In this document: one piece after another, positions 42,710 through 57,583 of the stretch
Layout of the letters: every line of letters begins with the position of its first letter
Position numbering within the stretch: the stretch's first letter is position 1
NCBI GenBank assembly: GCA_900770185.1
Contig: CAAGJM010000035.1
Coordinates: 149,761-213,760, forward strand
Origin: Clostridia bacterium
GTDB taxonomy: Bacteria; Bacillota; Clostridia; Christensenellales; Borkfalkiaceae
Reading direction: 5' to 3'
DNA length: 64,000 nt
Notes under the pieces: model-generated
The model's database searches: none
What the model was told of the DNA's origin: nothing
What the model saw: only the letters and a program-made list of their open reading frames with translations
Position numbers and translations under genes: made by a program

Positions 42710-42906
42710 TTTATCACCGCTTAATATTTTAACACAGCTAAGCGATTTTAACAAGCCAAATTAAACGGGCGGCGCAAATTTTTAACCGGCAGTTTATCGC
42801 GGGCAAAAACCCGCTTACCCGCAGATTTTTTGAAAAAATAAATTTTGATTGATTTTTTTAAACTTTTAGAGTATAATAGTTGCAATTAAAAGAGGGGGGT
42901 GCGAAT

Positions 42907-43470
42907 TTGCCTAACTACACAAGGGAAGCGATTAAAGCGTCGTTTATAAAACTTTTAAACGAAAAGCCGCTTAACCGTATAACCGTTAAAAACATAATTT
43001 CCGATTGCAAAGTAAGCCGCAATACCTTTTATTATCACTTTAAAGACGTGCCCGAACTTTTGGAAGTAATAATAAAAGACCTTCTTGACGAACTTGTTAA
43101 AAACAACACGACGATAGACTCGGTAAGCGGCGTCATAGATATGGCGTACCGCTACTATAAAGAGAATAAAAAAGCGATTTATCACATATATAACTCTGTC
43201 GACAGGGTTTATTACGAAGACTTTTTGCTTAAAATGTGCGAACACACCGCTTCGACTTACGTAAACGAAACGGCAAAAACTTATCCGCTTAAAGACGTAG
43301 ACAAGGCCGCCCTTATTCACCTTTTAAAATGCCAGTTTTTCGGGCTTACGATGGAATGGTCGAAAGACGATATGGAAAGCGACATAGTTGAAAGCTGCCA
43401 TAAAACGATTGATTTGTTCTTGGAAATTATAATTAAAAAAAGCGGCAGTCAAAACGCGCCGTCAAACTGA
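42907..43470 (+). CDS. TetR-family transcriptional regulator
   Basis: N-terminal HTH (..ITVKNIISDCKVSRNTFYYHFKD..), RBS AAGAGGGGGG before a TTG start, -10 TATAAT at 42872. Confidence 0.7.
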   Translation: MPNYTREAIKASFIKLLNEKPLNRITVKNIISDCKVSRNTFYYHFKDVPELLEVIIKDLLDELVKNNTTIDSVSGVIDMAYRYYKENKKAIYHIYNSVDRVYYEDFLLKMCEHTASTYVNETAKTYPLKDVDKAALIHLLKCQFFGLTMEWSKDDMESDIVESCHKTIDLFLEIIIKKSGSQNAPSN

Positions 43471-43718: not shown

Positions 43719-44975
43719 ATGTTTATTGATTTCACCCCGCAAATGAAAAAAGAATATACCATTCTTTGCCCCGACATTTTCCCCACGCACATGGAACTTT
43801 TGTCGGAAGTTTTTCATATTTACGGATATAATCTTCAAATAGTCAAATACGAGGGCAAAAAGGTCATAGACACGGGGCTTAAATACCTTAACAACGATAT
43901 GTGCTACCCTGCCGTATGCATGATAGGTCAGCAACTCTACGCGCTGACCTCGGGCGACTACGACCCGAAAAAATGCGCCCTTATACAGTTTCAGACGGGC
44001 GGCGGGTGCAGGGCGTCGAACTACATATTTTTGCTGCGCAAAGCGTTAAAACAAATGAATATGGAATACGTTCCCGTAATATCTTTAAGTTTTAGCGGGT
44101 ACGAAAAGTACAGCGGGTTTAAAATCACCCCGCTTATGATAGTGACGGCGCTCCGCTCTATCGTGTACGGGGACATGCTGTTGCTTTTAAAAAACCAAAC
44201 TCTTCCGTACGAAGTAAACGCCGGCGACACGCAAAAAACGGTTAAAAAATGGATAAACTTTTTAACCGAACAATTTAAGCGTAAACGCGGGCTTACAAGA
44301 CATGCGCTTAAAAAGAATTTGCAGGCAATGGCGAAAGATTTCAGCCTTATAAAGCGAGAGAAAAAGGAGCTTACAAAGGTCGGCATAGTGGGCGAAATTT
44401 ACGTTAAATACTCATCTTTCGGCAACAACGGGCTTGAAAAATTTTTACTTAAAGAAAATTGCGAATATATGGTGCCGGGGGTTTTGGGATTCTTTCAGTA
44501 CTGTTTTGCGAACGCCGAAACGGATAAAAAGTACTACGGCGGAAAACTTACGAGCGCGATTATAAATAAATTCGGCGAAAAAATAGCCGACGGGTGGGAA
44601 GAGATTTTAACGGAAGCGTTGCGCCCCTATCCCGAATTCAGCACCCCGCTTCCGTTTAACAAAGTTAAAAAACTTGCCGACGAGGTTATAGACCGCGGCG
44701 TTAAAATGGGCGAAGGGTGGCTTCTTTGCGGCGAAGTCGCCGAGCTTATTTTAAAGGGTTACGACAACGTTATCTGCGCCCAGCCTTTCGGGTGCCTGCC
44801 GAATCACATAGTAGCAAAAGGCACCATTCACCGCTTGCGCGAGCTTTACCCGACGGCGAACATTTTCCCCGTCGATTACGACGCGGGCGCAAGCAAAGTA
44901 AACCAGGAAAACCGCATAAAACTTATGCTTGCAATCGCTGAAAACGGAGATAAAAATGAAGACGCTGGGGCTTGA
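43719..44975 (+). CDS. 2-hydroxyacyl-CoA dehydratase-family (HgdA/B-like, DUF2229-type) protein; first half of a PlsA/PlsR-like plasmalogen-synthase-family pair
   Basis: 418 aa with the Cys pattern and length of the dehydratase-component-like family. Followed by, and overlapping, a double BcrAD/BadFG ATPase gene. Confidence 0.6.
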   Translation: MFIDFTPQMKKEYTILCPDIFPTHMELLSEVFHIYGYNLQIVKYEGKKVIDTGLKYLNNDMCYPAVCMIGQQLYALTSGDYDPKKCALIQFQTGGGCRASNYIFLLRKALKQMNMEYVPVISLSFSGYEKYSGFKITPLMIVTALRSIVYGDMLLLLKNQTLPYEVNAGDTQKTVKKWINFLTEQFKRKRGLTRHALKKNLQAMAKDFSLIKREKKELTKVGIVGEIYVKYSSFGNNGLEKFLLKENCEYMVPGVLGFFQYCFANAETDKKYYGGKLTSAIINKFGEKIADGWEEILTEALRPYPEFSTPLPFNKVKKLADEVIDRGVKMGEGWLLCGEVAELILKGYDNVICAQPFGCLPNHIVAKGTIHRLRELYPTANIFPVDYDAGASKVNQENRIKLMLAIAENGDKNEDAGA

Positions 44976-47874
44976 CGTCGGTTCGACCACTTTAAAAGCG
45001 GTGGTTCTTAGCGGCGATAAAATTTTATATTCCGCTTACGTTCGCCACCTTTCGCGCGTGGGCGAGAAGTTTAAAGAAATTTCCGCCGAATTAGCGGAAG
45101 TTTTAGGCGACGAGATTTTTAAGGCGGCAATATCGGGCTCGGCGGGAATGGGGCTTTCCGAAAAAGCGAACATCCCCTTTGTGCAAGAAGTTTTCGCCGA
45201 ACAACTTGCGGTTAAAAAGCTAAACAAAGGAACGGACGCGGTTATAGAACTCGGCGGCGAAGACGCGAAAATTTTGTTTTTGACGGGCGGGTTCGAGATG
45301 CGCATGAACGGTACCTGCGCGGGCGGCACGGGCGCGTTTATCGACCAGATGGCGACCCTTTTGAAAGTTGCGCCCGAAGAGTTAAACGCGCTTGCCGAAA
45401 AAGCCGAAAAGGTGTACAGAATCGCTTCGCGCTGCGGGGTTTTTGCAAAATCGGACGTACAACCGCTAATAAACCAAGGCGCAAAACACGAAGACGTTGC
45501 GGCGGGCATATATCAAGCCGTCGTATCGCAAACGGTTGCGGGGCTTGCGCAAGGGCGCGAAATTAAGGGTAACGTCGTATACTTGGGCGGACCTTTGACT
45601 TTTAACTCGTACCTTAGAAAAGCCATGGACGAAACGCTTAAAACGACCGGCGTTTTGCCCGAAAATTCGCTTTATTACGTTGCGATGGGCGCGGCGTTTT
45701 CAGGCGTCGGAAAAGAAACGACGCTTTCGGAATTAACCGCCGCTTTAACGAAAACCCAAACCGAAATAACTTATAACTCCGTCGCCCCGCTCTTTTTAAG
45801 CAACGCGGACTACGACGAGTTTTCTATGCGCCACGAAAAAAACCAAGGCGCGGTTAAACGTTTAAGCGCGCCCGAAAGCGAAATGTTCCTCGGCGTGGAC
45901 GCGGGGTCGACTACCGTTAAAATTCTTTTAACGAACAAAAACGGAGATATATTCCGCCCCTTTTACTCGTCGAACGACGGCAACCCCGTGCCGATAGTCA
46001 AAAAATATCTGGAAGATTTTTATAGTGAATACCCAAGCGTTAAAATTCTTGCTTCGGCGGTTACCGGCTACGGCGAAAACGTTATTAAAAACGCTTTTAA
46101 TTTAGACCTCGGGTTAGTCGAAACCATGGCGCATTACACCGCCGCGAAAAAATTTAACGAAAACGTCGATTTTATTTTGGATATCGGCGGTCAAGACATA
46201 AAATGCTTTAAAATACGCAACGGCGCGATTGACGGGCTTTATTTAAACGAAGCGTGTTCTTCGGGGTGCGGCTCGTTTTTGCAGACGTTTGCGGCGATTT
46301 TAGGCTACACCGCGCAAGAGTTTTCGCACCTTGCGCTGTTTGCCGACCACCCCGTTGACTTAGGCTCGCGCTGCACGGTGTTTATGAACAGTTCCGTAAA
46401 ACAAGCGCAAAAAGACGGCGCAAGCGTGGAAAACATTGCGGCGGGGCTTTCGATAAGCGTAGTTAAAAACGCGCTTTATAAGGTTATAAGATGCGCCGAC
46501 GGGAAAAGCCTCGGCAAAAACATAGTAGTGCAAGGCGGCACGTTTAAAAGCGACGCCGTTTTAAGAGCCTTCGAGCGGGAGACGGGCGCAAACGTTATCC
46601 GCCCCGAAATAGCCGAACTTATGGGAGCGTACGGCTGCGCGCTTTACGCCGCGGGTAAAGGTATAGAAAAAACCGAAACGATGACGGCGGAAGAACTTAA
46701 AAACTTCGTGCATACCGTAAAAACCATAACCTGCAAAGGGTGCACCAACCGATGCAATCTTACGATAAACACCTTTTCGGGCGGAAGAAAATTCATTGCG
46801 GGCAACCGCTGCCAAAAAGGCGCGGGCGTATCCGAAAAAATTACCGCGCCCGATTTATACGCCGATAAACTCGCGCTGTTAAGCGAGTATATGAAAAACG
46901 AAATCGACCCGAATAAAAAGACGGTCGGTTTTATGACGGGGCTTAATTTTTACGAACTTTTGCCGTTTTGGCACGCGTTTTTCAAGTCGCTTGACTTTAA
47001 TATTTTAACGTCGCCGACGGGAAGCAGAGATTTGTATCTTCTCGGTCAGCACACTATCCCGTCCGACACGGCTTGCTACCCCGCAAAACTTATGCACGGG
47101 CATGCGGAATGGCTTTTAAGCCGAAAACCCGACTATATTTTCTACCCCGATATGAGCTATAACGTGGAAGAAAATATGGGCGTTAATCACTTCAACTGCC
47201 CCGTGGTCGCTTACTATCCGCAGGTTTTGAAAATGAACGTTGCGGGGCTTAATAACGACAAATTTATATGCGACTTTTTGTCGCTTGCGAACAAAAAGCA
47301 GTTCAATAAGAGAATACGCGAAGTTTTAAGCGCGCACGGGCTTAATTTCACCAAAAAACAAATATCCGCCGCAACTAAAAACGCTTATGCGGAATACGAT
47401 AGTTACCTAAATAAAATTCGCGAAAACGCCGATAAGTATATTGCCGAAGCGATTAAAGAAAACAAGCCGATAATCGTGCTTGCGGGAAGACCCTATCACG
47501 TTGACCCCGAGATAAACCACGGCATCGACTCGCTTATTTCGGAAGCGGGCGCGACGGTTATTTCGGAAGACGGTTTGCGCGGCAAAATCGCGCCGTTTAG
47601 CGTAAACGTAAGAAACCAGTGGACGTATCACGCAAGGCTTTACGCGAGCGCGAAGTTCGTTAAAGAGTGCGAGTATAAAAACGTCGCGCTCGTTCAACTC
47701 GTATCTTTCGGGTGCGGCGTCGACGCGATAACGACGGACGAAGTAAGACAAATAGTCGAGAGCGGCGACAAAATTTACACGCAGATAAAAATAGACGAGA
47801 TATCGAATATGGGCGCGGTGAACATAAGGCTGAGGAGTTTGTTCGCGGTGCTTGACGCTAAGAATAAAAAGTAG
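44956..47874 (+). CDS. CoA-substrate-specific enzyme activase-type protein: two BadF/BadG/BcrA/BcrD ATPase domains fused to a dehydratase-component-like C-terminal domain (PlsA/PlsR-like)
   Basis: Two repeats of the acetate/sugar-kinase-fold N-terminus (MKTLGLDVGSTTLKAVV.. and MFLGVDAGSTTVKILL..). C-terminal 400 aa HGD-D-like with a Cys cluster. RBS GGAGATAAAA before the ATG at 44956. Confidence 0.7.
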   Translation: MKTLGLDVGSTTLKAVVLSGDKILYSAYVRHLSRVGEKFKEISAELAEVLGDEIFKAAISGSAGMGLSEKANIPFVQEVFAEQLAVKKLNKGTDAVIELGGEDAKILFLTGGFEMRMNGTCAGGTGAFIDQMATLLKVAPEELNALAEKAEKVYRIASRCGVFAKSDVQPLINQGAKHEDVAAGIYQAVVSQTVAGLAQGREIKGNVVYLGGPLTFNSYLRKAMDETLKTTGVLPENSLYYVAMGAAFSGVGKETTLSELTAALTKTQTEITYNSVAPLFLSNADYDEFSMRHEKNQGAVKRLSAPESEMFLGVDAGSTTVKILLTNKNGDIFRPFYSSNDGNPVPIVKKYLEDFYSEYPSVKILASAVTGYGENVIKNAFNLDLGLVETMAHYTAAKKFNENVDFILDIGGQDIKCFKIRNGAIDGLYLNEACSSGCGSFLQTFAAILGYTAQEFSHLALFADHPVDLGSRCTVFMNSSVKQAQKDGASVENIAAGLSISVVKNALYKVIRCADGKSLGKNIVVQGGTFKSDAVLRAFERETGANVIRPEIAELMGAYGCALYAAGKGIEKTETMTAEELKNFVHTVKTITCKGCTNRCNLTINTFSGGRKFIAGNRCQKGAGVSEKITAPDLYADKLALLSEYMKNEIDPNKKTVGFMTGLNFYELLPFWHAFFKSLDFNILTSPTGSRDLYLLGQHTIPSDTACYPAKLMHGHAEWLLSRKPDYIFYPDMSYNVEENMGVNHFNCPVVAYYPQVLKMNVAGLNNDKFICDFLSLANKKQFNKRIREVLSAHGLNFTKKQISAATKNAYAEYDSYLNKIRENADKYIAEAIKENKPIIVLAGRPYHVDPEINHGIDSLISEAGATVISEDGLRGKIAPFSVNVRNQWTYHARLYASAKFVKECEYKNVALVQLVSFGCGVDAITTDEVRQIVESGDKIYTQIKIDEISNMGAVNIRLRSLFAVLDAKNKK

Positions 47875-47935: not shown

Positions 47936-48736
47936 ATGTTTAACGGAGAAAACACCGCTTTATCGGTTATTATGCTCATAATTTTTCCGATAACGGCGTA
48001 TCTGATTGCGGGCGTGAACCCCGCGATAGTTTTATCGAAACTTATCTACAAACAAGATATCCGCTTGCTCGGCAGCAAAAACCCGGGGTTTACAAACTTT
48101 AAAAGGGTTTTCGGCGGAAAATACGCCTGGTTCGTCTTCTTTTTGGATTTGTTTAAATCGGCGGCGGTTTGCGCCGCGGCGGCGATAACTTATCACCTTT
48201 TGTTCGACGAAAGCAAAGACTTCAAGTGGTTCCATTTCGGGGGGGCGTACACGGGGTTTTTCGCCATGATAGGTCACGCATACCCCGTCTGGTACAAATT
48301 CAAGGGCGGCAAGGCGTTTTTGGTTGCGGCAAGCGCGATTTGGTTCGTTGACTGGCGCGTCGCGCTAATCGCCACGGTTATAATGATAACCCTTTTGTTT
48401 ACGACGAAGTACATGTCGCTTTCGGTGCTTATAGCGGGCTTTTCCTGCCCGATTGCCTTGGCGATTTTCGGCGTTAAAACCCCTTTGACTCTCGTTTTTT
48501 GCATACTGTCCGTTCTTTTGATGACCTATCGCCACAAAGCAAACATAGTAAGGCTTTTTAAAGGGACGGAATCGAAATTCTCGCCGTTTTCAAAAAACAA
48601 ACCCAAAAAAGCGGCGGCAAGTTGCACGAACGAAACGCCTGAGCCGAGCGGCGAAAACGACGGCGAAAACGACTTTGACAAAGCGACTAAACCGTGCGCC
48701 GAAAGCGACAACGACACTACAAAAAACTGCTTATAA
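47936..48736 (+). CDS. plsY: glycerol-3-phosphate acyltransferase PlsY with about 60-aa acidic C-terminal extension
   Basis: GSKNPGFTN (the GSGNPGATN-like motif), ..GHAYPVWYKFKGGKA... Confidence 0.85.
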   Translation: MFNGENTALSVIMLIIFPITAYLIAGVNPAIVLSKLIYKQDIRLLGSKNPGFTNFKRVFGGKYAWFVFFLDLFKSAAVCAAAAITYHLLFDESKDFKWFHFGGAYTGFFAMIGHAYPVWYKFKGGKAFLVAASAIWFVDWRVALIATVIMITLLFTTKYMSLSVLIAGFSCPIALAIFGVKTPLTLVFCILSVLLMTYRHKANIVRLFKGTESKFSPFSKNKPKKAAASCTNETPEPSGENDGENDFDKATKPCAESDNDTTKNCL

Positions 48737-48833
48737 TTACTATTAAACCCTCGAAACGCTTCGGGGGTTTTCGTTTTAATTAAGACAAAACGGCACGATT
48801 TGTACTAATTTGTTACACCCGCAGAATATTGAC

Positions 48834-48848
48834 CAACTAAGTTAGTTG
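48834..48848. promoter_or_regulatory. palindromic operator-like site CAACTA-agt-TAGTTG abutting the -35 of the acp-operon promoter
   Basis: ACTA-N3-TAGT core shared with the 43592 site. A half-site-like TGTACTA is also at 48801. Confidence 0.45.
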
Positions 48849-48872
48849 CAAGTTTTTCACAATTCGATATAA
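48845..48872 (+). promoter_or_regulatory. sigma-A-type promoter TTGCAA-16-TATAAT for the acp-KS-fab-acc-plsX operon
   Basis: Consensus-like hexamers about 110 nt upstream of the acp ATG. Confidence 0.5.
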
Positions 48873-48982
48873 TTGAACTGTGCGGCGTTATATATATTAT
48901 ATATATAAATATAACCTTGCGCCTGTCCGCCGCCTTAAAGGCTTAGCGGAATATTAAAAATAAAAAATTGAGAGGTATTATT

Positions 48983-49225
48983 ATGAACGAACTCGAAGTA
49001 AAAGCAAAAATCAAAGAAATGTTATGCGACCGTTTGGGCATCGAACCCGAAGCCCTTGAATACGACACCGCCCTTTTCAACGAAGGCATAGGTCTTGACA
49101 GCATCGACTCGCTCGAAATTATTTCGGCAATCGACGAAGAATACGGCGTTTCTATGACGGGCGTAGGCAAAGAACACTTCAAAAACATCGACGCGCTTGC
49201 GGAGTACGTTATCGCGAACGCTTAA
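48983..49225 (+). CDS. acyl carrier protein (divergent, DSIDS rather than DSLD)
   Basis: ..LGLDSIDSLEIISAIDEEYG.. phosphopantetheine-attachment site, 80 aa, RBS GAGAGG. Confidence 0.8.
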   Translation: MNELEVKAKIKEMLCDRLGIEPEALEYDTALFNEGIGLDSIDSLEIISAIDEEYGVSMTGVGKEHFKNIDALAEYVIANA

Positions 49226-49240: not shown

Positions 49241-51613
49241 ATGAAAAACGATAACGTAACTTGCGTTATTACCGGCATCGGCGTTATCAGCGCGATAGGT
49301 AAAAACGTTGAAGAAAACTGGTCGAACATTCTCGCTTCGAAAAGCGGAATCGACCACACCAAAACGATAGACACGGCTAACTGCTACGCCGATTTCAGTG
49401 CGGAAGTTAAAGATTTTGCCGTGCCCGAAAATATCGACCGCGCCACCGCTCTTTGCTTAAAAGCGACTCAAGAAGCGGTCGGCGACGCAAACCTCGGCGA
49501 CTTTAACGGCGATAAGCGCGTAAGCGTTATTATGGGAAGTTGCGTAGGCGGCGGCAGAAGCATAGAAGATTATTATAGAAAAGGTAAAGACGAAAACTGT
49601 ATTTTAAAAATGCCTATTTCCGCCATCGCTAACCACGTTGCAAAAGCGTATAACGCGGGCGGCGTCGTTACGAACGTTGCAAACGCCTGCGCGGCGGGTA
49701 CGATAAGCATCGCTTACGCAGCCGACCTTATACGCGCAAAAAAAGCGGACGTGGTTATAGCGGGGGGCGCGGACGCCTTCTCGTCGGTACCCTACTCCGG
49801 CTTTTTATCTTTGCACGCGCTTGACGAAAACGGCTGCTCGCCCTTCAACCACTCGCACGGCATAACGCTCGGCGAAGGCGCGGGCGCGGTGATAGTCGAA
49901 TCGCTCGAACACGCAAAAGCTCGCGGCGCGAAAATTTACTGCGAAGTTTTGGGTTCGGGGATAAGCAGCGACGCTCACCATATAACCGCACCCCGCCCCG
50001 ACGGTGAAGGTCAGATGAAAGCGATACGCTCGGCGATAAGCTCTTCGGGGATTAGCGAAGCCGACGTCGATTACGTAAACGCACACGGCACCGGCACCGC
50101 TAAGAACGACGAAGCGGAATTTTTGTCTTTACACACCATTTTCGACGGTAAAAACGACAATTTATCGGTTAGTTCCACAAAAGCATACACCGGGCATTGC
50201 TTAGGCGCGGCGGGCGCGATAGAAGCGGTTTACGCCATTAAAGCGTTGAAAGAAAACGTCGTTCCGCCCACCCTCGGATATAGTGAAGAAGATTTAGCCG
50301 TTTTGAAAGAAAAGGCGGGAACCATGGACTTTACGCCCAACAAACCCGTTAAAAAGCAGTTAAACGCCGTTATGAACAACTCGTTTGCGTTCGGCGGCAA
50401 TAACGCAAGCATAATTTTCGGCAAAAATAAACAAGCCCCAGAAAAAGCCGCGGAACGCCGCGACATCGTTATAACCGGCATAGGCGTCGTTTCGCCTATC
50501 GCGAACGGCAAAACGGGTTACGTCGAGAAATGCCTCGAAGGATTTGTTCCGACGGAAGCCGAACAATCTTCTAACGTAACGACTACCGACTACGACAAGC
50601 AAGGTCTTAAAATGGCGTTTTACAGAAAACTTGACCATTTAAGCCAGCTTCAGGCGGTTTCTGGCATGGACGCGCTTAACGACGGCGCATACAAGGTAAG
50701 CGACGAAAACGCATTTAACATAGGTATGATTATCGGCACTTCGGAAGGCGCGCTCGGTCCGAGCCTTGACTTCCAGAGTATTATCGCCGAAAAAGGAAAC
50801 GCAGGCGGCAGCGCGTTCAAGTTCCCCAATACCGTTTATAATGCGGCGGGCGGATATTTATCTATCTGCTCCGGCATAAAAGGTTATAACGTGACCGTAA
50901 CGAACGGCGCGCAATCGGGGCTTCAATCTGCGGCTTATGCGATGCAGGTTATAAGAAACGGCGTCGAAGACGCGATGATTGCTACCGGCACCGACGAAAA
51001 CAGCGGAATTATTTCCGAAATTTATCATATTTTAGGCGTTGCCGCGGGCGAAAGGGTAAACCCCTACGACGGCAAAGATAAATTTTCTCTTTCGTGCGGA
51101 AGCATATCTAACCTTATGGAAACGAAAGAATCGGCAATTAAGCGCGGCGCGACCGTTTACGCGAAAGTTACGGGCTACGGCATGGCGCACGCAAGCGTTG
51201 ACTTCGGCACCGTCGACGGCTCTATCGCAGGTTTAAAAGACGCTATAAGCGAGGCTCTTAGCGACGCAAACGTATCCGCAAGCGACGTAAGCGCGGTTAT
51301 AGGTTTTGCAAACGGCTTAAAAGTTATTGACGATATAGAAACAAACGGGCTTAAAAAGTTCTTCGATTTAGAAAAAACGCCCGTTATAACCGTTAAAAAG
51401 CGCATGGGCGAAGCCCGCGCGGCTTCTGCGGCGCTTGCTCTATCCCACGCCGCCCTTATGCTTCACGGCGATATCGCCGCTGAAAAGGACGCTTACGTTT
51501 TCGTGAACGGCAAGCCCGAACAAACGGAAGTTAAAAGCGCAAATCTTAATAAAATACTCGTCGTATCGTATGCGGTCGGCGGGTCATACACGGCAATCGT
51601 CGTAGAAAAATAG
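49241..51613 (+). CDS. ketosynthase plus chain-length-factor-like didomain protein (KS-CLF fusion)
   Basis: Domain 1 has the condensing Cys (VANACAAG) and both His motifs (NAHGTGT, KAYTGHCLGAAG). Domain 2 aligns to domain 1 but has Gln at the Cys position (VTVTNGAQSGL) and no His motifs. Confidence 0.8.
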   Translation: MKNDNVTCVITGIGVISAIGKNVEENWSNILASKSGIDHTKTIDTANCYADFSAEVKDFAVPENIDRATALCLKATQEAVGDANLGDFNGDKRVSVIMGSCVGGGRSIEDYYRKGKDENCILKMPISAIANHVAKAYNAGGVVTNVANACAAGTISIAYAADLIRAKKADVVIAGGADAFSSVPYSGFLSLHALDENGCSPFNHSHGITLGEGAGAVIVESLEHAKARGAKIYCEVLGSGISSDAHHITAPRPDGEGQMKAIRSAISSSGISEADVDYVNAHGTGTAKNDEAEFLSLHTIFDGKNDNLSVSSTKAYTGHCLGAAGAIEAVYAIKALKENVVPPTLGYSEEDLAVLKEKAGTMDFTPNKPVKKQLNAVMNNSFAFGGNNASIIFGKNKQAPEKAAERRDIVITGIGVVSPIANGKTGYVEKCLEGFVPTEAEQSSNVTTTDYDKQGLKMAFYRKLDHLSQLQAVSGMDALNDGAYKVSDENAFNIGMIIGTSEGALGPSLDFQSIIAEKGNAGGSAFKFPNTVYNAAGGYLSICSGIKGYNVTVTNGAQSGLQSAAYAMQVIRNGVEDAMIATGTDENSGIISEIYHILGVAAGERVNPYDGKDKFSLSCGSISNLMETKESAIKRGATVYAKVTGYGMAHASVDFGTVDGSIAGLKDAISEALSDANVSASDVSAVIGFANGLKVIDDIETNGLKKFFDLEKTPVITVKKRMGEARAASAALALSHAALMLHGDIAAEKDAYVFVNGKPEQTEVKSANLNKILVVSYAVGGSYTAIVVEK

Positions 51614-51622
51614 GAGATTTAA

Positions 51623-52354
51623 ATGAAAGTTGCCATAGTTACGGGTTCATCGCGCGGGATAGGCAAAGCCTGCGCGTTAAGGCTCGCAAAAGACGGCTTC
51701 ACCGTCGTAATAAATTATTCGCACAGCGAAAGCGAAGCGAAAAACGTCCTTAATGAAATAGAATCGTTCGACGGAAGCGGCATGATTTACCGCGCCGACG
51801 TATCTAAGCTTGACGAAGTTAAGGCTATGATGCGCGACGTTTCAAAAACTTACGGACAAATAGACGTGCTTGTAAACAACGCGGGCATCGTTCGCGACGA
51901 ATATCTTTTAATGCTTAACCCCGAAACGCTCGATAAGTGCTTCGATTTAAACGTTAAGGGTTACTTTTACTGCGCTCAGCAGGCGGTGCTTAAAATGTTC
52001 CGTAAAAAAAGCGGCGTTGTTATAAACATGTCGTCGGTAAGCGGAATTTTAGCGTTAGCGGGTCAAAGCGTATATAGCGCGACGAAAGGCGCGGTCAACT
52101 CTTTGACGCAGACGATGGCAAAAGAACTTGCCCCCTACGGTATCCGCGTGAACGCCGTTGCGCCCGGGTTTATAGAAACGGAAATGTTAAACGCGTTAAG
52201 CGACGAAAAAAAGCAGGAATATTTAAACGCTATCCCCATGCACAGGCTCGGTACGGTTGAAGACGTAGCAAACGTCGTTTCAATGCTCGCGTCCGACGCG
52301 GCAAGCTACATTACGGGACAGATTATAACCGTTGACGGGGGCATTTCGCTATGA
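51623..52354 (+). CDS. fabG: 3-oxoacyl-ACP reductase (SDR)
   Basis: TGSSRGIG Rossmann, NNAG, YSATK active site. Confidence 0.85.
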   Translation: MKVAIVTGSSRGIGKACALRLAKDGFTVVINYSHSESEAKNVLNEIESFDGSGMIYRADVSKLDEVKAMMRDVSKTYGQIDVLVNNAGIVRDEYLLMLNPETLDKCFDLNVKGYFYCAQQAVLKMFRKKSGVVINMSSVSGILALAGQSVYSATKGAVNSLTQTMAKELAPYGIRVNAVAPGFIETEMLNALSDEKKQEYLNAIPMHRLGTVEDVANVVSMLASDAASYITGQIITVDGGISL

Positions 52355-52794
52355 TGAACATTTACGGCGTAAACAAATATATTAAACAGCGCCCGCCCTT
52401 TCAGATGATTGAAAAGGTGTTGGAAATCGTTCCGCAAGAATCTGCGGTGGGCGTTAAAACGGTTGCGATAAACGAACCGTGGTTTCAGGGGCACTTTCCC
52501 GATTCGCCTATTCTTCCGGGCGTACTGATAATCGAAAGTTGCGCGCAGCTTTGCTCTATCGTAACGGAAACGTATAGCGCGTCGGACGACAAACTTTACG
52601 TTTTGCTGAAAGTCGATAACTTCAAGTTCTTAAAACCGATTATCCCGGGCGACGTTATGACCGTCTCGGTCAAGAAAAAAAGCGGCGCGGGTCCCCTTTT
52701 TACGTACGAGGCGGTGGTTACGGTAGACGGCGAAATAAGGAGTAAAGGCTCGCTTTCGTTCACCGCCATCCCCGACGTTAAAAACGAACTTTAA
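52351..52794 (+). CDS. fabZ: 3-hydroxyacyl-ACP dehydratase (hotdog fold, FabZ-like)
   Basis: ..HFPDSPILPGVLIIESCAQL.. with catalytic His and the GxxxE-like context. Confidence 0.85.
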   Translation: MMNIYGVNKYIKQRPPFQMIEKVLEIVPQESAVGVKTVAINEPWFQGHFPDSPILPGVLIIESCAQLCSIVTETYSASDDKLYVLLKVDNFKFLKPIIPGDVMTVSVKKKSGAGPLFTYEAVVTVDGEIRSKGSLSFTAIPDVKNEL

Positions 52795-52832: not shown

Positions 52833-53759
52833 ATGGCTAAAATTGCATTTTTGTTTGCGGGTCAGGGCGCGCAAACTGTCGGAATGGGTAAAGATTTATA
52901 CGAAACTTTTCCCGCAGCCAAAAGCGTTTTTGACGCGGGCGAGAAAATTTTGAACGGCGTTACGGATATTTGTTTCAACGCCGAAAAAGAAGTTTTAAAC
53001 CAAACCGAAAACACTCAGCCCTGCTTATTTTTAACCGATTTGGCGATTGCGGATACTTTGCTTGCCGCAGGGGTTGTTCCCGACGCGGTCGCGGGCTTCT
53101 CGCTCGGCGAAATACCCGCGCTTTCGTTTGCGGGCGTTATGAGCTTTGAAGACGCGTTTAAATTCGTGGTCGTGCGAGGCAAAGCTATGGCGGAAGCTTC
53201 AAAAAAGCACCCCGGCGCAATGGTCGCCGCGCTGAAACTCGACGCTAAAACCGTAGAACAGACCGCCGCCGAATTCAGCGAAATGTGGCCTGTCAACTAT
53301 AACTGTCCGGGGCAAATCGTTTGCGCAGGGAAGTCCGAACAGGCGGACGAGTTTGCGGAAGCGATTAAACTTGCGGGCGGCAGAGCCGTAAAACTGCCCG
53401 TCAGCGGCGCATTCCACACCCCTTATATGGAAAGCGTTAAGCCCGTTTTAGAAAAAACGCTTAACTATCTTAGCGTAAACGCGCCGAAAACGACTGTATA
53501 CGCAAACCGCACCGCTTTACCCTACCCAAACGTTAAAAGCGAAATTATATCTACCCTTTCATCGCAGGTATGCAATCCCGTCAAGTGGGAACAAACGATT
53601 AAAAACCTGCAAAATAGCGGCATTGACACTTTTATAGAAGTGGGTGCGGGGCAGACGCTTACAAGCCTTGTTAAGCGCACGCTTACGGACGTGAATGTGT
53701 TTACGGTAAACGACGCTGCGGGCGTAAACGCGGTTTTACAGGAACTTAAAGGAGAATAA
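52833..53759 (+). CDS. fabD: malonyl-CoA:ACP transacylase
   Basis: FLFAGQGAQ and the GFSLGE active-site Ser. Confidence 0.9.
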   Translation: MAKIAFLFAGQGAQTVGMGKDLYETFPAAKSVFDAGEKILNGVTDICFNAEKEVLNQTENTQPCLFLTDLAIADTLLAAGVVPDAVAGFSLGEIPALSFAGVMSFEDAFKFVVVRGKAMAEASKKHPGAMVAALKLDAKTVEQTAAEFSEMWPVNYNCPGQIVCAGKSEQADEFAEAIKLAGGRAVKLPVSGAFHTPYMESVKPVLEKTLNYLSVNAPKTTVYANRTALPYPNVKSEIISTLSSQVCNPVKWEQTIKNLQNSGIDTFIEVGAGQTLTSLVKRTLTDVNVFTVNDAAGVNAVLQELKGE

Positions 53760-53765
53760 TTCGTT

Positions 53766-54548
53766 ATGGTTACCCACAGCGAAGTTTTAAAAAAATGCCC
53801 GTTTTGCGGCAAAGAAGTAAGCGTAGGCGAGCTTTTTAAGGTGAATTTTATTTGCCCCGACTGCAAAAATTATTTTCAGGTCCCCGCAAGGGAGCGCGTT
53901 ATGCTTCTATCCGACGAAGGCGAATTTAACGAACTTTTCGGCGCGGAAATATTCATCGACCCGATAAACTTCCCCGACTACAAGCAAAAATACGACTCCG
54001 CAAAGAAAAAAAGCGGCGAGAACGAAGGCGTTTTGTGCGGCGTTACCAAAATTAACGGACATAAAACCTGCATTTTCGTTATGAACAGCGAATTTATGAT
54101 GGGTTCTATGGGTACGGTCGTCGGCGACAGAATAACCGCCCTTTTCGAGTATGCAACCCGCCACAAACTGCCCGTTATAGGCTACACCGTTTCGGGCGGC
54201 GCCAGGATGCAGGAAGGCATACTTTCGCTTATGCAGATGGCTAAAGTTTCAGCCGCCGTCAAAAAGCACGACGAGCACGGGCTTTTGTACGTAGTTTGTC
54301 TGACCGACCCGACCATGGGCGGAGTTACGGCAAGCTTTGCGATGCTCGGCGATATTATTTTTGCCGAACCCGGCGCAAGAATCGGCTTTGCGGGAAGGCG
54401 CGTCGTCGAACAGGTTACGGGCGAAAAACTGCCCGACTTTTTCCAGACCGCCGAATTTCAACTGCAAAACGGGTTTGTAGACGAGATTGTTCCGAGAGAA
54501 ATTCAGAAAGACCACCTTGCAAAATTACTTGAACTGCACGGATATTGA
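53766..54548 (+). CDS. accD: acetyl-CoA carboxylase carboxyltransferase beta subunit
   Basis: N-terminal Zn ribbon CPFCGK..CPDC and a crotonase-like CT domain. Confidence 0.9.
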   Translation: MVTHSEVLKKCPFCGKEVSVGELFKVNFICPDCKNYFQVPARERVMLLSDEGEFNELFGAEIFIDPINFPDYKQKYDSAKKKSGENEGVLCGVTKINGHKTCIFVMNSEFMMGSMGTVVGDRITALFEYATRHKLPVIGYTVSGGARMQEGILSLMQMAKVSAAVKKHDEHGLLYVVCLTDPTMGGVTASFAMLGDIIFAEPGARIGFAGRRVVEQVTGEKLPDFFQTAEFQLQNGFVDEIVPREIQKDHLAKLLELHGY

Positions 54549-54582: not shown

Positions 54583-55434
54583 ATGCCATCGACGGTTTAC
54601 GATAGGGTTTTAAGCACCCGCAAAAACGGGCGCGCGACCGCTATCGACTATATAAATTCAATATTTACCGATTTTATCGAACTACACGGCGACAGAGCAA
54701 CGCAAGACGACCACGCTATCGTGGGCGGCATAGCTAAACTTAACGATATGCCCGTAACCGTATTAGGAATTGAAAAAGGGCGCAACATAACCGAACGCTT
54801 AGACAGAAACTTCGGTTGCGTTCTGCCGAGCGGTTACAGAAAGGCTTTAAGACTTATTAAAGAAGCGGAAAAATTCCACCGCCCCGTCGTTTGCTTTGTC
54901 GATACGCTCGGCGCAAACTGCGGCAAACTTGCCGAAGAACGCGGCGCGGGGGAGGCGATTGCAAAGAACATCGCCGAACTTTCCGCCGTAAAAACACCCG
55001 TTATTTCCGTTATGATAGGCGAAGGCGGTAGCGGCGGCGCGCTTGCGCTTGCGGTTGCGGATAAAGTCTGGATGCTTGAAAACGCATATTATTCGGTAAT
55101 TTCACCCGAATCTTGCGCAAGCATACTGTTTAAAGACCCCGCCCGCGCACCCGAAGCTGCCGAGCACCTTAAACTTTCCGCACACGACTTATATAAAATG
55201 GGCGTTGCCGAAAAAGTTATTGCCGAGCCGAGCGACTTTCAGAATACGGACGAAAGCAATACGTTTATGGAAGGTCTTAAAAACGACCTTTACGACGAGT
55301 TTAAGCGTTTGCAGTTCAAAACGCCCCACCGCTTAATAAGCGAGCGCACCGAAAAGTACAGAAAAATAGGCAGATATAACGAGTACGCCGTAAATAAATT
55401 CAGCGTTTTGGGGCTGTTAAATCTCGGTAATTAA
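54583..55434 (+). CDS. accA: acetyl-CoA carboxylase carboxyltransferase alpha subunit
   Basis: ..PVVCFVDTLGA..GEGGSGGALA.. AccA signature. Confidence 0.9.
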   Translation: MPSTVYDRVLSTRKNGRATAIDYINSIFTDFIELHGDRATQDDHAIVGGIAKLNDMPVTVLGIEKGRNITERLDRNFGCVLPSGYRKALRLIKEAEKFHRPVVCFVDTLGANCGKLAEERGAGEAIAKNIAELSAVKTPVISVMIGEGGSGGALALAVADKVWMLENAYYSVISPESCASILFKDPARAPEAAEHLKLSAHDLYKMGVAEKVIAEPSDFQNTDESNTFMEGLKNDLYDEFKRLQFKTPHRLISERTEKYRKIGRYNEYAVNKFSVLGLLNLGN

Positions 55435-55485: not shown

Positions 55486-56232
55486 ATGGAAAACAACGAA
55501 CCTAAAAAAATTTTAATAATAAACGGCAGTCCGCATAAAGAAAAAAGCACCACTATGATGATAACCGACGCTTTTACGCGCGGAATGTTATCGGTCGGCG
55601 GGTACCAAGCGGAAACGGTGCACGTTTCCGAACTTAATGTTAAGCCCTGCACGGGTTGTTTGTCGTGCTGGGGACGGACTGAAGGCGAATGCGTTATAAA
55701 AACCGACGATATGCCCGCGCTTAAACGCAAACTTATAGAAGCAGACGTCGTTATCGGCAGCTTTCCGCTCTATTATTTCGGCGTGCCGGGAATTTTAAAA
55801 GTCGTTATAGATAGGCTTTTATCTATGGTTAAAGCCTATCACGGACAATTAACCCCGAAAGATAACGCGCCCGCGCACGAATTCAGATACCCTAAACCCG
55901 GCAAAAAATACGTGCTTATTTCAGGTTGCGCCTACACGGAAACGGACGTCGTATACGTGCCCGTCATTAAGCAGTTCGACCTTATTTTGGGGAAAGACAA
56001 CTACACCGCTCTTTTCTGCCCGCAATTTAAAACCATGGCGGATAACGGCGGCGCGCGCAAAGAGCGCATTTTAAATAAGTTTGTTAAAGCAGGCGAAGAG
56101 TTTGCAAAAAACGGCTGTTTATCGCAGAAAACGATTGAGTCGGCAACCAAGCCGCCGTTTTCGAGCGAAGTTTACAAAACCATATTAAACAGCGTTTGGG
56201 CGGGTGAAAAACTTAAAGGCGGTCTTGTATGA
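55486..56232 (+). CDS. iron-sulfur flavoprotein (Isf)-like NAD(P)H-dependent FMN reductase-fold protein
   Basis: Flavodoxin-like N-terminus ILIINGSPHKEKSTT and the compact Cys motif CTGCLSC..x7..C (Cx2Cx2Cx7C) typical of Isf proteins. The stop overlaps the plsX start (ATGA). Confidence 0.7.
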   Translation: MENNEPKKILIINGSPHKEKSTTMMITDAFTRGMLSVGGYQAETVHVSELNVKPCTGCLSCWGRTEGECVIKTDDMPALKRKLIEADVVIGSFPLYYFGVPGILKVVIDRLLSMVKAYHGQLTPKDNAPAHEFRYPKPGKKYVLISGCAYTETDVVYVPVIKQFDLILGKDNYTALFCPQFKTMADNGGARKERILNKFVKAGEEFAKNGCLSQKTIESATKPPFSSEVYKTILNSVWAGEKLKGGLV

Positions 56233-57194
56233 TTAAACTTAGCGTTGATATGCTCGGCGCGGACAAACCCGAAACGGAGCTTGCGGCGGGCGCGATAAAC
56301 TTTCTTAAAAAAACCGACGATATATTTTTATACGTCTTCGGACACGTTAGCGAATTAAAGCCGCTTTTTTCCGCTTACCCCGAAATTAACGGCAAATACG
56401 AAATAGTCGATTCAGAAGACGCCCTTACGAATTACAGCGACCCTATGCTTGCGTATACCGACGAAAACGCCTCCCTCGTAAAAGCGATGAAGTACGCAAA
56501 AGACGGACTTTCGGAAGGCATCGTTACCCTTGGCGCAACGGGAGCGGTTTTAGTTTGCTCTATTATGATTTTGGGCAAAATTAAAGGACTACGCCCCATT
56601 TTAGCGGTCGAACTGAAAGCGGAAAACGATAAGCCGATGCTTATAGTTGACTGCGGCGCGAATATCGATAGCCGCGCGGAACTTTACGTTTCGTTTGCGA
56701 AACTCGGCGACGCATATATGAAGTGTTTGGGATTAGCGAACCCGCGCATTGCTCTTTTAAGTAACGGCGCGGAAAAAACCAAAGGCAACGAAGCAGTAAA
56801 AGCGGCGCATAAACTTTTGGAAGCAACGCCCGTCAACTTTATCGGCAACGTTGAAGCGACCGGTGCGCTTAGCGGCAGTCAGGACGTTATAGTTGCCGAC
56901 GGGTTCAACGGAAACGTTTTACTGAAATCTATCGAAGGGGTTGCGAAAACCGTCATTGCCGAAATCGAACAAAAAGTGCAAAATTCAAGCGAATTTAAAG
57001 AAGTTTTGGCAACCGTAAAGAAAAAGTACGATTATAATACGCAAGGCGGCGCAATGCTTTTGGGAGTAAACAAACCCGTTATGAAAGGTCACGGTTCGGC
57101 AACGCACGAAGCGATTGAAAATATGCTGCTCCGTTTAAGCGATTTGGCAAAAAACGGCTTTATTGAAAAAGTCCGGTCAAGCTTAGAAAAGTAA
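56229..57194 (+). CDS. plsX: phosphate acyltransferase PlsX
   Basis: MIKLSVDMLGADKPE.. and a PlsX-like core. Confidence 0.9.
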   Translation: MIKLSVDMLGADKPETELAAGAINFLKKTDDIFLYVFGHVSELKPLFSAYPEINGKYEIVDSEDALTNYSDPMLAYTDENASLVKAMKYAKDGLSEGIVTLGATGAVLVCSIMILGKIKGLRPILAVELKAENDKPMLIVDCGANIDSRAELYVSFAKLGDAYMKCLGLANPRIALLSNGAEKTKGNEAVKAAHKLLEATPVNFIGNVEATGALSGSQDVIVADGFNGNVLLKSIEGVAKTVIAEIEQKVQNSSEFKEVLATVKKKYDYNTQGGAMLLGVNKPVMKGHGSATHEAIENMLLRLSDLAKNGFIEKVRSSLEK

Positions 57195-57320: not shown

Positions 57321-57394
57321 GCGGATGTAGTTCAGTGGTAAAACAACGGCTTCCCAAGCCGTGGTTGCGGGTCCGATTCCCGTCATCCGCTCCA
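57321..57394 (+). tRNA. tRNA-Gly (anticodon CCC)
   Basis: Hand-folded cloverleaf: acceptor GCGGATG/CATCCGC, anticodon stem ACGGC/GCCGT with loop TTCCCAA, T-arm, encoded CCA. A hairpin terminator follows at 57396-57422. Confidence 0.8.
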
Positions 57395-57583
57395 CTTTAA
57401 ACACGCTTAATGCGTGTTTTTTTTGCGGTAGGGGCGAGGACCCGCAGGGTACGGTTGCGCAGAAGAAGTTAAACAAAAACCGTATAAATAATTTGCGCAA
57501 CTTGCCAAGGGGCTCCCCTTTAGGGGTTTCGGCAAATTCCCGTCATCCGCTCCACTTTAAACACGCTTAATGCGTGTTTTTTT
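57376..57583 (+). repeat. direct duplication (about 46-48 bp) of the tRNA-Gly 3' end plus its terminator hairpin, with copies at 57376-57421 and 57536-57583
   Basis: The string ATTCCCGTCATCCGCTCCACTTTAAACACGCTTAATGCGTGTTTTTTT occurs twice, about 160 bp apart. Confidence 0.85.

Follow-up and report, generated by a model that had tools for sequence, protein, structure and literature searches.

A Fused Pair of Active and Degenerate Ketosynthases in a Fatty Acid Synthesis-Type Operon of a Clostridia Bacterium

Introduction

Ladderane-producing anammox bacteria possess two FabF homologues, amxFabF2 and amxFabFmut, which form a heterodimer similar to the pairs that a ketosynthase (KS) makes with a chain-length factor (CLF) (bioRxiv 10.64898/2026.05.19.726425). 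The two proteins are inactive apart; upon co-expression they decarboxylate malonyl-acyl carrier protein (malonyl-ACP), form acetoacetyl-ACP and initiate fatty acid synthesis without FabH (bioRxiv 10.64898/2026.05.19.726425). PDB entries 9s5h and 9s5i apparently represent this heterodimer, because their molecule names and description match, the preprint text itself printing no PDB code. Here we describe KS-KS', a protein in which an active KS (domain 1) is followed by a degenerate KS-like unit (KS', domain 2), encoded in a 64,000-nt stretch of the genome of a Clostridia bacterium (assembly GCA_900770185.1, contig CAAGJM010000035.1, positions 149,761–213,760), hereafter the window. Its nearest counterpart is the anammox FabF2/FabFmut type, from which KS-KS' is set apart by the fusion and by its location in a housekeeping-type operon. 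With a probability of about 0.6, we regard KS-KS' as the enzyme that carries out condensation in a streamlined type II fatty acid synthesis (FAS) system, with domain 2 acting as the dimer partner.

The same principle, an active KS with an inactive tunnel-shaping partner, is seen in the KS-alpha/CLF pairs of type II polyketide synthases (PKS), such as those for actinorhodin (1tqy), ishigamide (6kxd) and anthraquinone (6smo). These are separate polypeptides, whereas KS-KS' is fused, and its locus contains no PKS cyclases or aromatases and would specify a fully reducing pathway. In PfaC (6riw) a KS and, after it, a CLF-like domain share one chain and pair within the molecule as a pseudo-dimer, an arrangement also predicted for KS-KS'. 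However, PfaC is part of a multidomain megasynthase encoded by a pfa operon, while KS-KS' is free-standing and accompanied by discrete FabG, FabZ, FabD and ACP; against the PfaA model TIGR02813 it scores 101.7 bits (cut-off 1010). Canonical FabF shares with domain 1 the catalytic triad, the lysine and the gate Phe, and works with the same partners FabG, FabZ, FabD and ACP, but it is a homodimer with two active sites and relies on initiation by FabH, whereas KS-KS' would have one site per pseudo-dimer and no fabH is present in its locus. PigJ/RedX of prodiginine biosynthesis is a discrete protein with two KS-like halves, one of them active, the active half being C-terminal. Unlike an iterative FAS enzyme, it performs a single condensation, of pyrrolyl and malonyl units; against its model NF053555 (about 760 aa) KS-KS' obtains 70.6 bits (cut-off 900), with domain 1 alone aligning, at positions 508–755.

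A first-pass annotation, made by reading the window sequence, had suggested that nothing comparable was described. This stands for a fused FabF-type KS-KS', none of which was found described in Firmicutes by a literature search whose incomplete coverage makes it a weak negative. It does not stand more broadly, since the PfaC didomain is a structural match, the unfused anammox pair has been characterized and fusions occur in many phyla. The architecture and context of KS-KS' are solid and apparently undescribed in the literature searched.

Results and Discussion

Domain Structure and Catalytic Residues of KS-KS'

The KS-KS' gene is a single frame with no internal stops, and its ATG at 49241 coincides with the start point of the homologues. 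Pfam detects the N- and C-terminal ketoacyl-synt domains twice each, confirming the two KS domains reported in the first-pass annotation for the 792-aa product (790 aa from the ATG); by Pfam and NCBIfam these 790 aa comprise two KS folds and no other domain. The fusion of an active and a dead KS is a correct observation and far beyond chance. Between the two units lies a short linker, some 12 residues long (about 395–407, KNKQAPEKAAERR).

Domain 1 carries the full catalytic context ascribed to it earlier: Cys150 (codon at 49688–49690), His282, Lys314, His319 and the gate residue Phe384 are invariant in all 121 aligned family members. Its best sequence match in PDB is chain B of the anammox entry (9s5h_B, 1.3e-80), followed by Bacillus subtilis FabF (3.5e-77).

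Domain 2 shares 25% identity with domain 1 (BLASTP, E 4e-12). In this alignment the column of the active-site Cys is occupied by Ala557, and the same residue was placed there by phmmer against Escherichia coli FabF(C163A), Vibrio cholerae FabF and 9s5h_C, as well as by a hidden Markov model (HMM) built from active KS domains alone. Family members differ in the Cys-column residue (A 87, N 16, T 5, S 4, and P 3 of 121), while the next residue, Gln558 (Cys+1), is kept in 117 of the 121 sequences. The first His is replaced by Phe689 and the second by Glu724; Lys719 is retained, and Glu724 and Arg726 are invariant in the 121-sequence alignment. Cys and both His are missing from domain 2 throughout the 121 close homologues, save that one of them has the Cys, though no His. 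The loss of both His motifs noted in the first-pass annotation is therefore upheld, and a search by alignment for an active-site Cys together with intact His motifs in domain 2 found none. The Gln that it had put in place of the Cys is off by one position, its own printed alignment setting C over A.

The best PDB sequence match of domain 2 is the other chain of the anammox entry (9s5h_C, 6.8e-29), so that each half finds its best relative by sequence, among solved structures, in a different chain of one entry. In phmmer, domain 2 scores 104.6 bits with 9s5h_C, about 93 with E. coli FabF and 34.5 with the actinorhodin CLF (1tqy_B). Its best NCBIfam model is fabF, at 117.9 bits against a cut-off of 493.75; the whole of KS-KS' (453.4 bits) also remains below this cut-off of the fabF equivalog TIGR03150. 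Like domain 2, 9s5h_C has Glu for the second His and contains the FPNTVxNA motif. This motif lies at residue 528, in domain 2 (as FPNTVxN), and is found in 118 of 120 close family members. It is also present in 43 of 100 distant fused proteins, in these exclusively in the C-terminal half and never in an active KS half.

These alignments mark domain 2 as a KS-like partner that is catalytically dead. Since its scores with 9s5h_C and FabF exceed that with the actinorhodin CLF and its best NCBIfam model is fabF, it is best classified as a degenerate FabF of the anammox type and not as a type II PKS CLF. Both systems combine an active FabF homologue with a partner lacking Cys-His-His, and the anammox pair works with a FAS-type ACP. 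They differ in that the anammox units are separate genes and polypeptides, whereas KS-KS' is one chain with KS before KS'; in that the anammox genes belong to a ladderane cluster that includes radical SAM enzymes, whereas KS-KS' lies in an operon with fabD, accDA and plsX; and in the Cys position, occupied by Val or Thr in the anammox partner and by Ala followed by a conserved Gln in domain 2.

Strict membership of domain 2 in the CLF/KSQ group was rejected on the register of the Gln and on the scores: CLFs have Gln at the Cys column, so the feature presented earlier as defining is displaced by one residue here. A tandem FabF in which both active sites work, the reading to which the best matches of both halves to FabF models would point, has virtually no chance of being right, given the residue columns in all 121 sequences and a domain 2 score far below the FabF cut-off. 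An origin of domain 2 by recent internal duplication is unlikely, because the two domains are only 25% identical and no active KS is as near to domain 2 as are free-standing KS' proteins and the C-terminal halves of distant fusions. KS and KS' also occur unfused, encoded by neighbouring genes, in loci of anammox bacteria, Margulisiibacteriota, Syntrophaceae and Acidobacteriota.

Predicted Structure

An AlphaFold model of full-length KS-KS', computed from a 25-sequence alignment (30–74% identity), has pLDDT 93.7 and pTM 0.94, a value that demands confident placement of the halves relative to each other. The only full-length PDB match found by Foldseek was the PfaC KS-CLF didomain 6riw (TMq 0.80, 917 columns, 17% identity), whereas single FabF chains cover one half each (TMq about 0.48). 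On the grounds of this pTM and this sole full-length match, KS-KS' is predicted to form an intramolecular pseudo-dimer of the KS/CLF type, in agreement with the free-standing KS-CLF-type fusion proposed in the first-pass annotation. The helix following the nucleophile elbow starts at residue 149 in domain 1 and at residue 559 in domain 2, suggesting that the elbow of domain 2 (residues 556–558) is remodelled.

This remodelling bears on the earlier proposal that domain 2 is a true KSQ/CLF decarboxylase, in which Gln558 would move into the place once held by the Cys through a local shift of the elbow, and domain 2 itself would decarboxylate malonyl-ACP to prime domain 1. The changed first turn (about 556–558), the conservation of Gln558 beside a variable Cys-column residue, and four distant fused proteins, of about 60, with Gln exactly at the Cys column are compatible with it. 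Nevertheless, the proposal is quite improbable: Gln lies at Cys+1 in every alignment, both His residues needed for decarboxylation by a KS are gone, and the Cys-position and following residues are hypervariable in the wider fused family. Moreover, the anammox partner has Val or Thr at this place and the pair still decarboxylates.

Genetic Context

KS-KS' is the second gene of a nine-gene unit in the order acp, KS-KS', fabG, fabZ, fabD, accD, accA, flavoprotein, plsX (Table 1), with gaps of at most 52 nt and 4-nt overlaps in two pairs, fabG/fabZ and flavoprotein/plsX (ATGA in the latter). The neighbours named in the first-pass annotation, including plsY upstream, were all recovered by Pfam and NCBIfam. 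A terminator-like hairpin and a promoter-like site lie between plsY and acp, and plsY is probably transcribed separately from the nine-gene unit; in the promoter and terminator scan the total number of matches was no higher than in shuffled sequence, so that their positions alone are suggestive. In close loci, where the position lies on the contig, acp is kept directly upstream of the fusion.

Among the ORFs of at least 150 aa in the window, Pfam revealed no FabH, further KS, FabI/K/L/V or AccB/C, and tblastn of the window with FabH, FabK, FabF, AccB and AccC from related loci gave no match. The description of KS-KS' as the sole condensing enzyme thus holds for the operon and for these ORFs of the 64 kb, and reaches no further. 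The operon contains no thioesterase, cyclase, aromatase, tailoring enzyme, exporter or radical SAM gene. Both carboxyltransferase genes, accD and accA, are in the operon, with neither accB nor accC in the 64 kb.

Table 1. Features of the window and their positions
Feature	Position	Strand	Evidence or remark
TetR-family regulator (TetR_C_8 domain)	42880-43470	+	heads lipid gene block
418-aa protein, family unassigned	43719-44975	+	no Pfam/NCBIfam match; faint DUF2229 match on record
981-aa protein, double BcrAD/BadFG ATPase + DUF2229	44929-47874	+	
plsY, acyl-phosphate:glycerol-3-phosphate acyltransferase	47936-48736	+	PF02660 2.7e-40, TIGR00023
Terminator-like hairpin just 3' of plsY	48745-48770		consensus match
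Promoter-like site TTGCAA-16-TATAAT	48846..48873	+	in 247-nt plsY-acp gap; consensus match
acp, acyl carrier protein, 80 aa, DSL serine motif	48983..49225	+	PF00550 1.4e-11
KS-KS' fusion ORF	49235/49241..51613	+	TTG start, 792 aa; ATG 49241, 790 aa
KS-KS' domain 1 (residues 1-397), active FabF-like ketosynthase	49241..50431	+	catalytic set and gate Phe384
KS-KS' linker and domain 2 (residues 398-790), predicted dead KS-like KS'	50432..51613	+	alignments, HMMs
fabG, 3-oxoacyl-ACP reductase	51623..52354	+	TIGR01830 278 bits, below cut-off 298; Pfam adh_short_C2
fabZ, 3-hydroxyacyl-ACP dehydratase	52351..52794	+	NF000582 127.5 bits, above cut-off 113; 4-nt overlap with fabG stop
fabD, malonyl-CoA:ACP transacylase	52833..53759	+	TIGR00128 262.1 bits, above cut-off 260.9
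accD, carboxyltransferase beta subunit	53766..54548	+	TIGR00515 2.3e-89
accA, carboxyltransferase alpha subunit	54583..55434	+	NF041504 322 bits, above cut-off 300
Flavodoxin-fold flavin mononucleotide (FMN) protein, 248 aa	55486..56232	+	FMN_red and Flavodoxin_2
plsX, acyl-ACP:phosphate acyltransferase, last gene of unit	56229..57194	+	TIGR00182 9.8e-63
Terminator-like hairpin after plsX	57399-57419		consensus match

The Flavoprotein as a Candidate Enoyl Reductase

The eighth gene of the unit encodes a conserved flavoprotein that was overlooked in the first-pass annotation and probably completes the pathway; its public record name is "flavodoxin family protein" only. The motif C55-X2-C58-X2-C61-X7-C69 and an NGSP loop are invariant in 29 sequences down to 30% identity. 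Such a compact motif, CX2CX2CX5-7C, ligates a 4Fe-4S cluster in iron-sulfur flavoproteins (ISF; PMC3164229); the CX2CX2CX7C of the protein fits it and its fold is likewise of the FMN flavodoxin-like type, while no solved ISF is present among its PDB sequence matches up to E = 1. Pfam detects neither the short-chain dehydrogenase/reductase (SDR) domain nor the nitronate monooxygenase (NMO)/TIM-barrel domain of the known enoyl-ACP reductases (FabI/FabL/FabV and FabK, respectively).

The nearest solved sequence relative is 7d38 (E 3e-7 over about 84 residues, comprising the Cys-rich stretch), the flavone reductase FLR of Flavonifractor plautii, an FMN enzyme representing a new class of ene-reductases (PMC7862272). 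FLR hydrogenates C=C bonds conjugated to a carbonyl (PMC7862272), a reaction of the same type as enoyl reduction. The two proteins have in common the flavodoxin-like FMN fold and the aligned Cys-rich stretch, while the C-terminal substrate "tail" of FLR is absent from the flavoprotein.

Of 12 close loci with the fusion, 10 also contain the flavoprotein, whereas the distant loci all lack it. Its gene may follow fabZ, follow fabG or stand between accA and plsX, and the linkage holds at 35–65% identity; in the window its stop overlaps the plsX start, indicating translational coupling. Since operons with fabD, acc and plsX genes and no known reductase always contain this ene-reductase-like flavoprotein, we infer from context and analogy that it is a candidate enoyl-ACP reductase, an assignment we hold tentatively, at somewhat short of even odds. 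To our knowledge, no enoyl-ACP reductase of flavodoxin fold has been described, and the literature search, of incomplete coverage and hence a weak negative here too, brought up none.

Alternatively, the flavoprotein may not be an enoyl reductase at all, but a FabX-like acyl-ACP dehydrogenase/isomerase for anaerobic synthesis of unsaturated fatty acids or a general redox or stress protein, with the true reductase encoded elsewhere. FabX of Helicobacter pylori, which has FMN and a 4Fe-4S cluster in a different fold, serves in unsaturated fatty acid synthesis and may be counted in favour of this alternative, as may the coexistence of the flavoprotein with FabK in two loci (L010 and L011), the quinone and azo reductases that are its structural neighbours, and the association of ISF-type proteins with oxidative stress. 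In addition, no dedicated enzyme for unsaturated fatty acids is known in Clostridia (PMC2700279). We consider this alternative possible, though not probable, in view of the constant presence of the flavoprotein in fabD/acc/plsX operons lacking a known reductase, the persistence of its linkage to the fusion despite changing position and divergence, and the ene-reductase activity of its nearest solved relative.

Four distant homologues of the flavoprotein (P0365–P0367 and P0369) are longer, 340–355 aa, and SCP2 (PF02036) is on record in two of the four. One without such a record, P0365 (L086, 8001-10852), adjoins one gene for a carrier protein of 74 aa and another for an AMP-binding protein resembling acyl-AMP ligases.

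Distribution of the Fusion and Related Loci

A word-indexed protein search with KS-KS' yielded 4572 proteins at E ≤1e-5. The best 120 of them are all full-length (about 750–830 aa, 60–99% identity), originate from Clostridiales, Ruminococcus, Anaeroplasma, Christensenellaceae and Eubacteriales metagenome-assembled genomes (MAGs), and where named at all are called "beta-ketoacyl-ACP synthase family protein" only. When domain 2 alone was searched against 1.84 billion cluster representatives, 90 clusters fell below 1e-30, most of them fusions of 750–870 aa with 24–38% identity, nearly all in the order active KS then dead KS'. The close clade (48–73% identity, GTDB genomes) comprises gut and rumen MAGs of Clostridia, Christensenella, Erysipelotrichaceae, Lachnospiraceae, Ruminococcus, Oscillospiraceae and Acholeplasmatales and, unexpectedly, Fibrobacter. 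More distant fusions were met in, among others, Streptomyces, Thermosporothrix, Serratia, Paraburkholderia and Planctomycetota, and the fused KS-KS' architecture is common across many phyla. A metagenome contig of 147 kb matches the window itself.

Related loci were viewed with 10 kb flanks. The nine-gene order recurs in gut MAGs, in five of these loci (L001, L002, L082, L083, and L084), within unrelated flanks and at 62–73% identity; in L083 acpS lies directly upstream of acp. A Ruminococcus locus (L087) contains acp, KS-KS', fabG, fabZ, flavoprotein and plsX, and an Acholeplasmatales locus (L007) acp, KS-KS', fabG, fabZ, flavoprotein, accB, accC, accD, accA, fabD and biotin ligase; accB and accC are likewise inserted between the flavoprotein gene and accD in Erysipelotrichaceae (L003). 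Position and combination of the cassette vary in L006, L008, L009 and L012. The conserved core is acp, KS-KS', fabG, (fabZ) and the flavoprotein; it is the only visible FAS in some lineages and an addition to a canonical set in others. Where such a canonical set is present (L010 and L011), a separate acpP belonging to it is missing between fabH and fabK.

The distant fusions of Streptomyces (L013, L016, and L019), Thermosporothrix (L014), Serratia (L022) and Paraburkholderia (L033 and L035) are 770–920 aa long with 26–34% identity, and the clusters around them hold some fabG, fabZ, ACP and fabD copies of their own; such clusters probably serve secondary metabolism as reducing, type II PKS-like loci. 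Longer relatives of about 970–1280 aa (L018 8621-12454 of Verrucomicrobiia, L024 262-4041, P0226 of 1253 aa, and P0237 of 974 aa) suggest further domains or a third KS-like unit.

Proposed Role in Fatty Acid Synthesis

We propose that in the host, presumably an uncultured Christensenellales-like gut Clostridia bacterium, the nine genes would be transcribed together and no other condensing enzymes would be encoded elsewhere in the genome. Domain 1 would accept the acyl group on Cys150, decarboxylate malonyl-ACP and perform the Claisen condensation via His282, His319 and Lys314. Domain 2 would be an obligatory, fixed dimer partner that completes and shapes the acyl tunnel as chain-length factors do, and because it would serve as partner only, each pseudo-dimer would have a single active site. 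For priming, KS-KS' would decarboxylate malonyl-ACP to acetyl-ACP, malonyl-ACP decarboxylation being known from the anammox pair, and FabH would therefore not be needed under this proposal; it would also carry out elongation, through the full run to long chains. In each cycle FabG would reduce the keto group, FabZ would dehydrate, and the flavoprotein would most likely perform enoyl reduction in place of FabK or FabI, after which PlsX and PlsY would hand the acyl chains to glycerol-3-phosphate. Self-priming is consistent with the FabH-independent initiation for which Enterococcus faecalis provides a precedent: deletion of fabH there is reported not to block de novo synthesis fully (PMC13372179).

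Several observations weigh against this role. The data cover 64 kb of the genome, and a canonical fabH/fabF/fabK set could be located elsewhere. The ACP diverges from canonical AcpP, scoring below the cut-offs of its models (39 bits against TIGR00517, cut-off 70), and accB and accC are missing from the operon. In vitro the anammox heterodimer did not elongate beyond acetoacetyl-ACP (bioRxiv 10.64898/2026.05.19.726425). In Clostridiales (L010, 9983-19448) and Oscillospiraceae (L011) a module of acp, a 753-aa KS-KS', fabG and flavoprotein lies directly upstream of canonical fabH-fabK-fabD-fabG-fabF-fabZ, and so it does not always replace the standard enzymes. In Fibrobacter (L004/L005, 9674-13560) only acp, KS-KS', fabG and fabZ are found, with no acc, fabD or flavoprotein genes nearby; the Fibrobacter protein is 56% identical to the Clostridia one, and the cassette looks like the result of horizontal transfer between rumen phyla.

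These loci raise the alternative of an accessory PKS-like lipid pathway, in which the cassette of acp, KS-KS', fabG, fabZ and the flavoprotein would produce an acyl chain specialised in its length or modification, beside a canonical type II FAS encoded elsewhere and merely share fabD, acc and plsX with it. Such a pathway would account for the module beside a full canonical fab set, for the four-gene core standing alone in Fibrobacter, for the varied positions and combinations of the cassette and for the non-canonical ACP; furthermore, the distant fused relatives sit in secondary-metabolite-like loci, and all characterized KS/CLF pairs come from specialised pathways. It is, however, unlikely for this locus. 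The only fabD, accDA and plsX genes of the locus are within the fusion operon, here and in at least five other genomes, in one of which (L083) acpS is adjacent. The operon is devoid of thioesterase, cyclase, tailoring enzyme and exporter genes, no second KS was found among the window ORFs of at least 150 aa, and the flavoprotein stop overlaps the start of plsX.

The condensing role of KS-KS' in a streamlined FAS thus remains our preferred reading. Its extension to an entire lineage of Firmicutes that are abundant in gut and rumen and uncultured (Christensenellales-like Clostridia, some Ruminococcus, Erysipelotrichaceae and Acholeplasmatales), in which KS/KS' would replace FabH and FabF and the flavoprotein would at the same time replace FabI/K/L/V, is a doubtful though conceivable generalization.

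Other Features of the Window

The genes for the 418-aa and 981-aa proteins lie directly upstream of plsY. By size and domain content alone this pair can be likened to the anaerobic plasmalogen synthase PlsA/PlsR (HAD/BCR family), with the opposite gene order. The TetR-family regulator at 42880-43470 gives a weak match to FabR (22.8 bits) and may regulate a lipid regulon; a regulator of the same TetR type occurs in L083 (8113-8643), just upstream of DUF308, acpS, acp and KS-KS'. The intergenic region between plsX and a GH2 gene contains a perfect 48-nt direct repeat (57376-57423 and 57536-57583, 160 nt apart), and an identical terminator-like hairpin, AAACACGCTTAATGCGTGTTT with a T-run after it, is contained in both copies.

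Implications

Textbook accounts of fatty acid synthesis in bacteria include FabH, FabF and the enoyl reductases, all of them antibiotic targets. If the operon is the sole FAS of its host, a pseudo-heterodimer of the KS/CLF type, until now tied to polyketides, polyunsaturated fatty acids and ladderane lipids, can run housekeeping lipid synthesis, FabH is dispensable, and a new family of enoyl-ACP reductases exists. In that case metabolic reconstructions from MAGs would wrongly score fatty acid synthesis as incomplete, because the automated names of the two key proteins are "beta-ketoacyl-ACP synthase family protein" and "flavodoxin family protein", and drugs directed at FabI and FabK would have to be reassessed as to the gut commensals they are predicted to hit or to spare. 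For the work on anammox FabF2/FabFmut, the KS-KS' family provides a much larger set of relatives, which are fused and easier to express.

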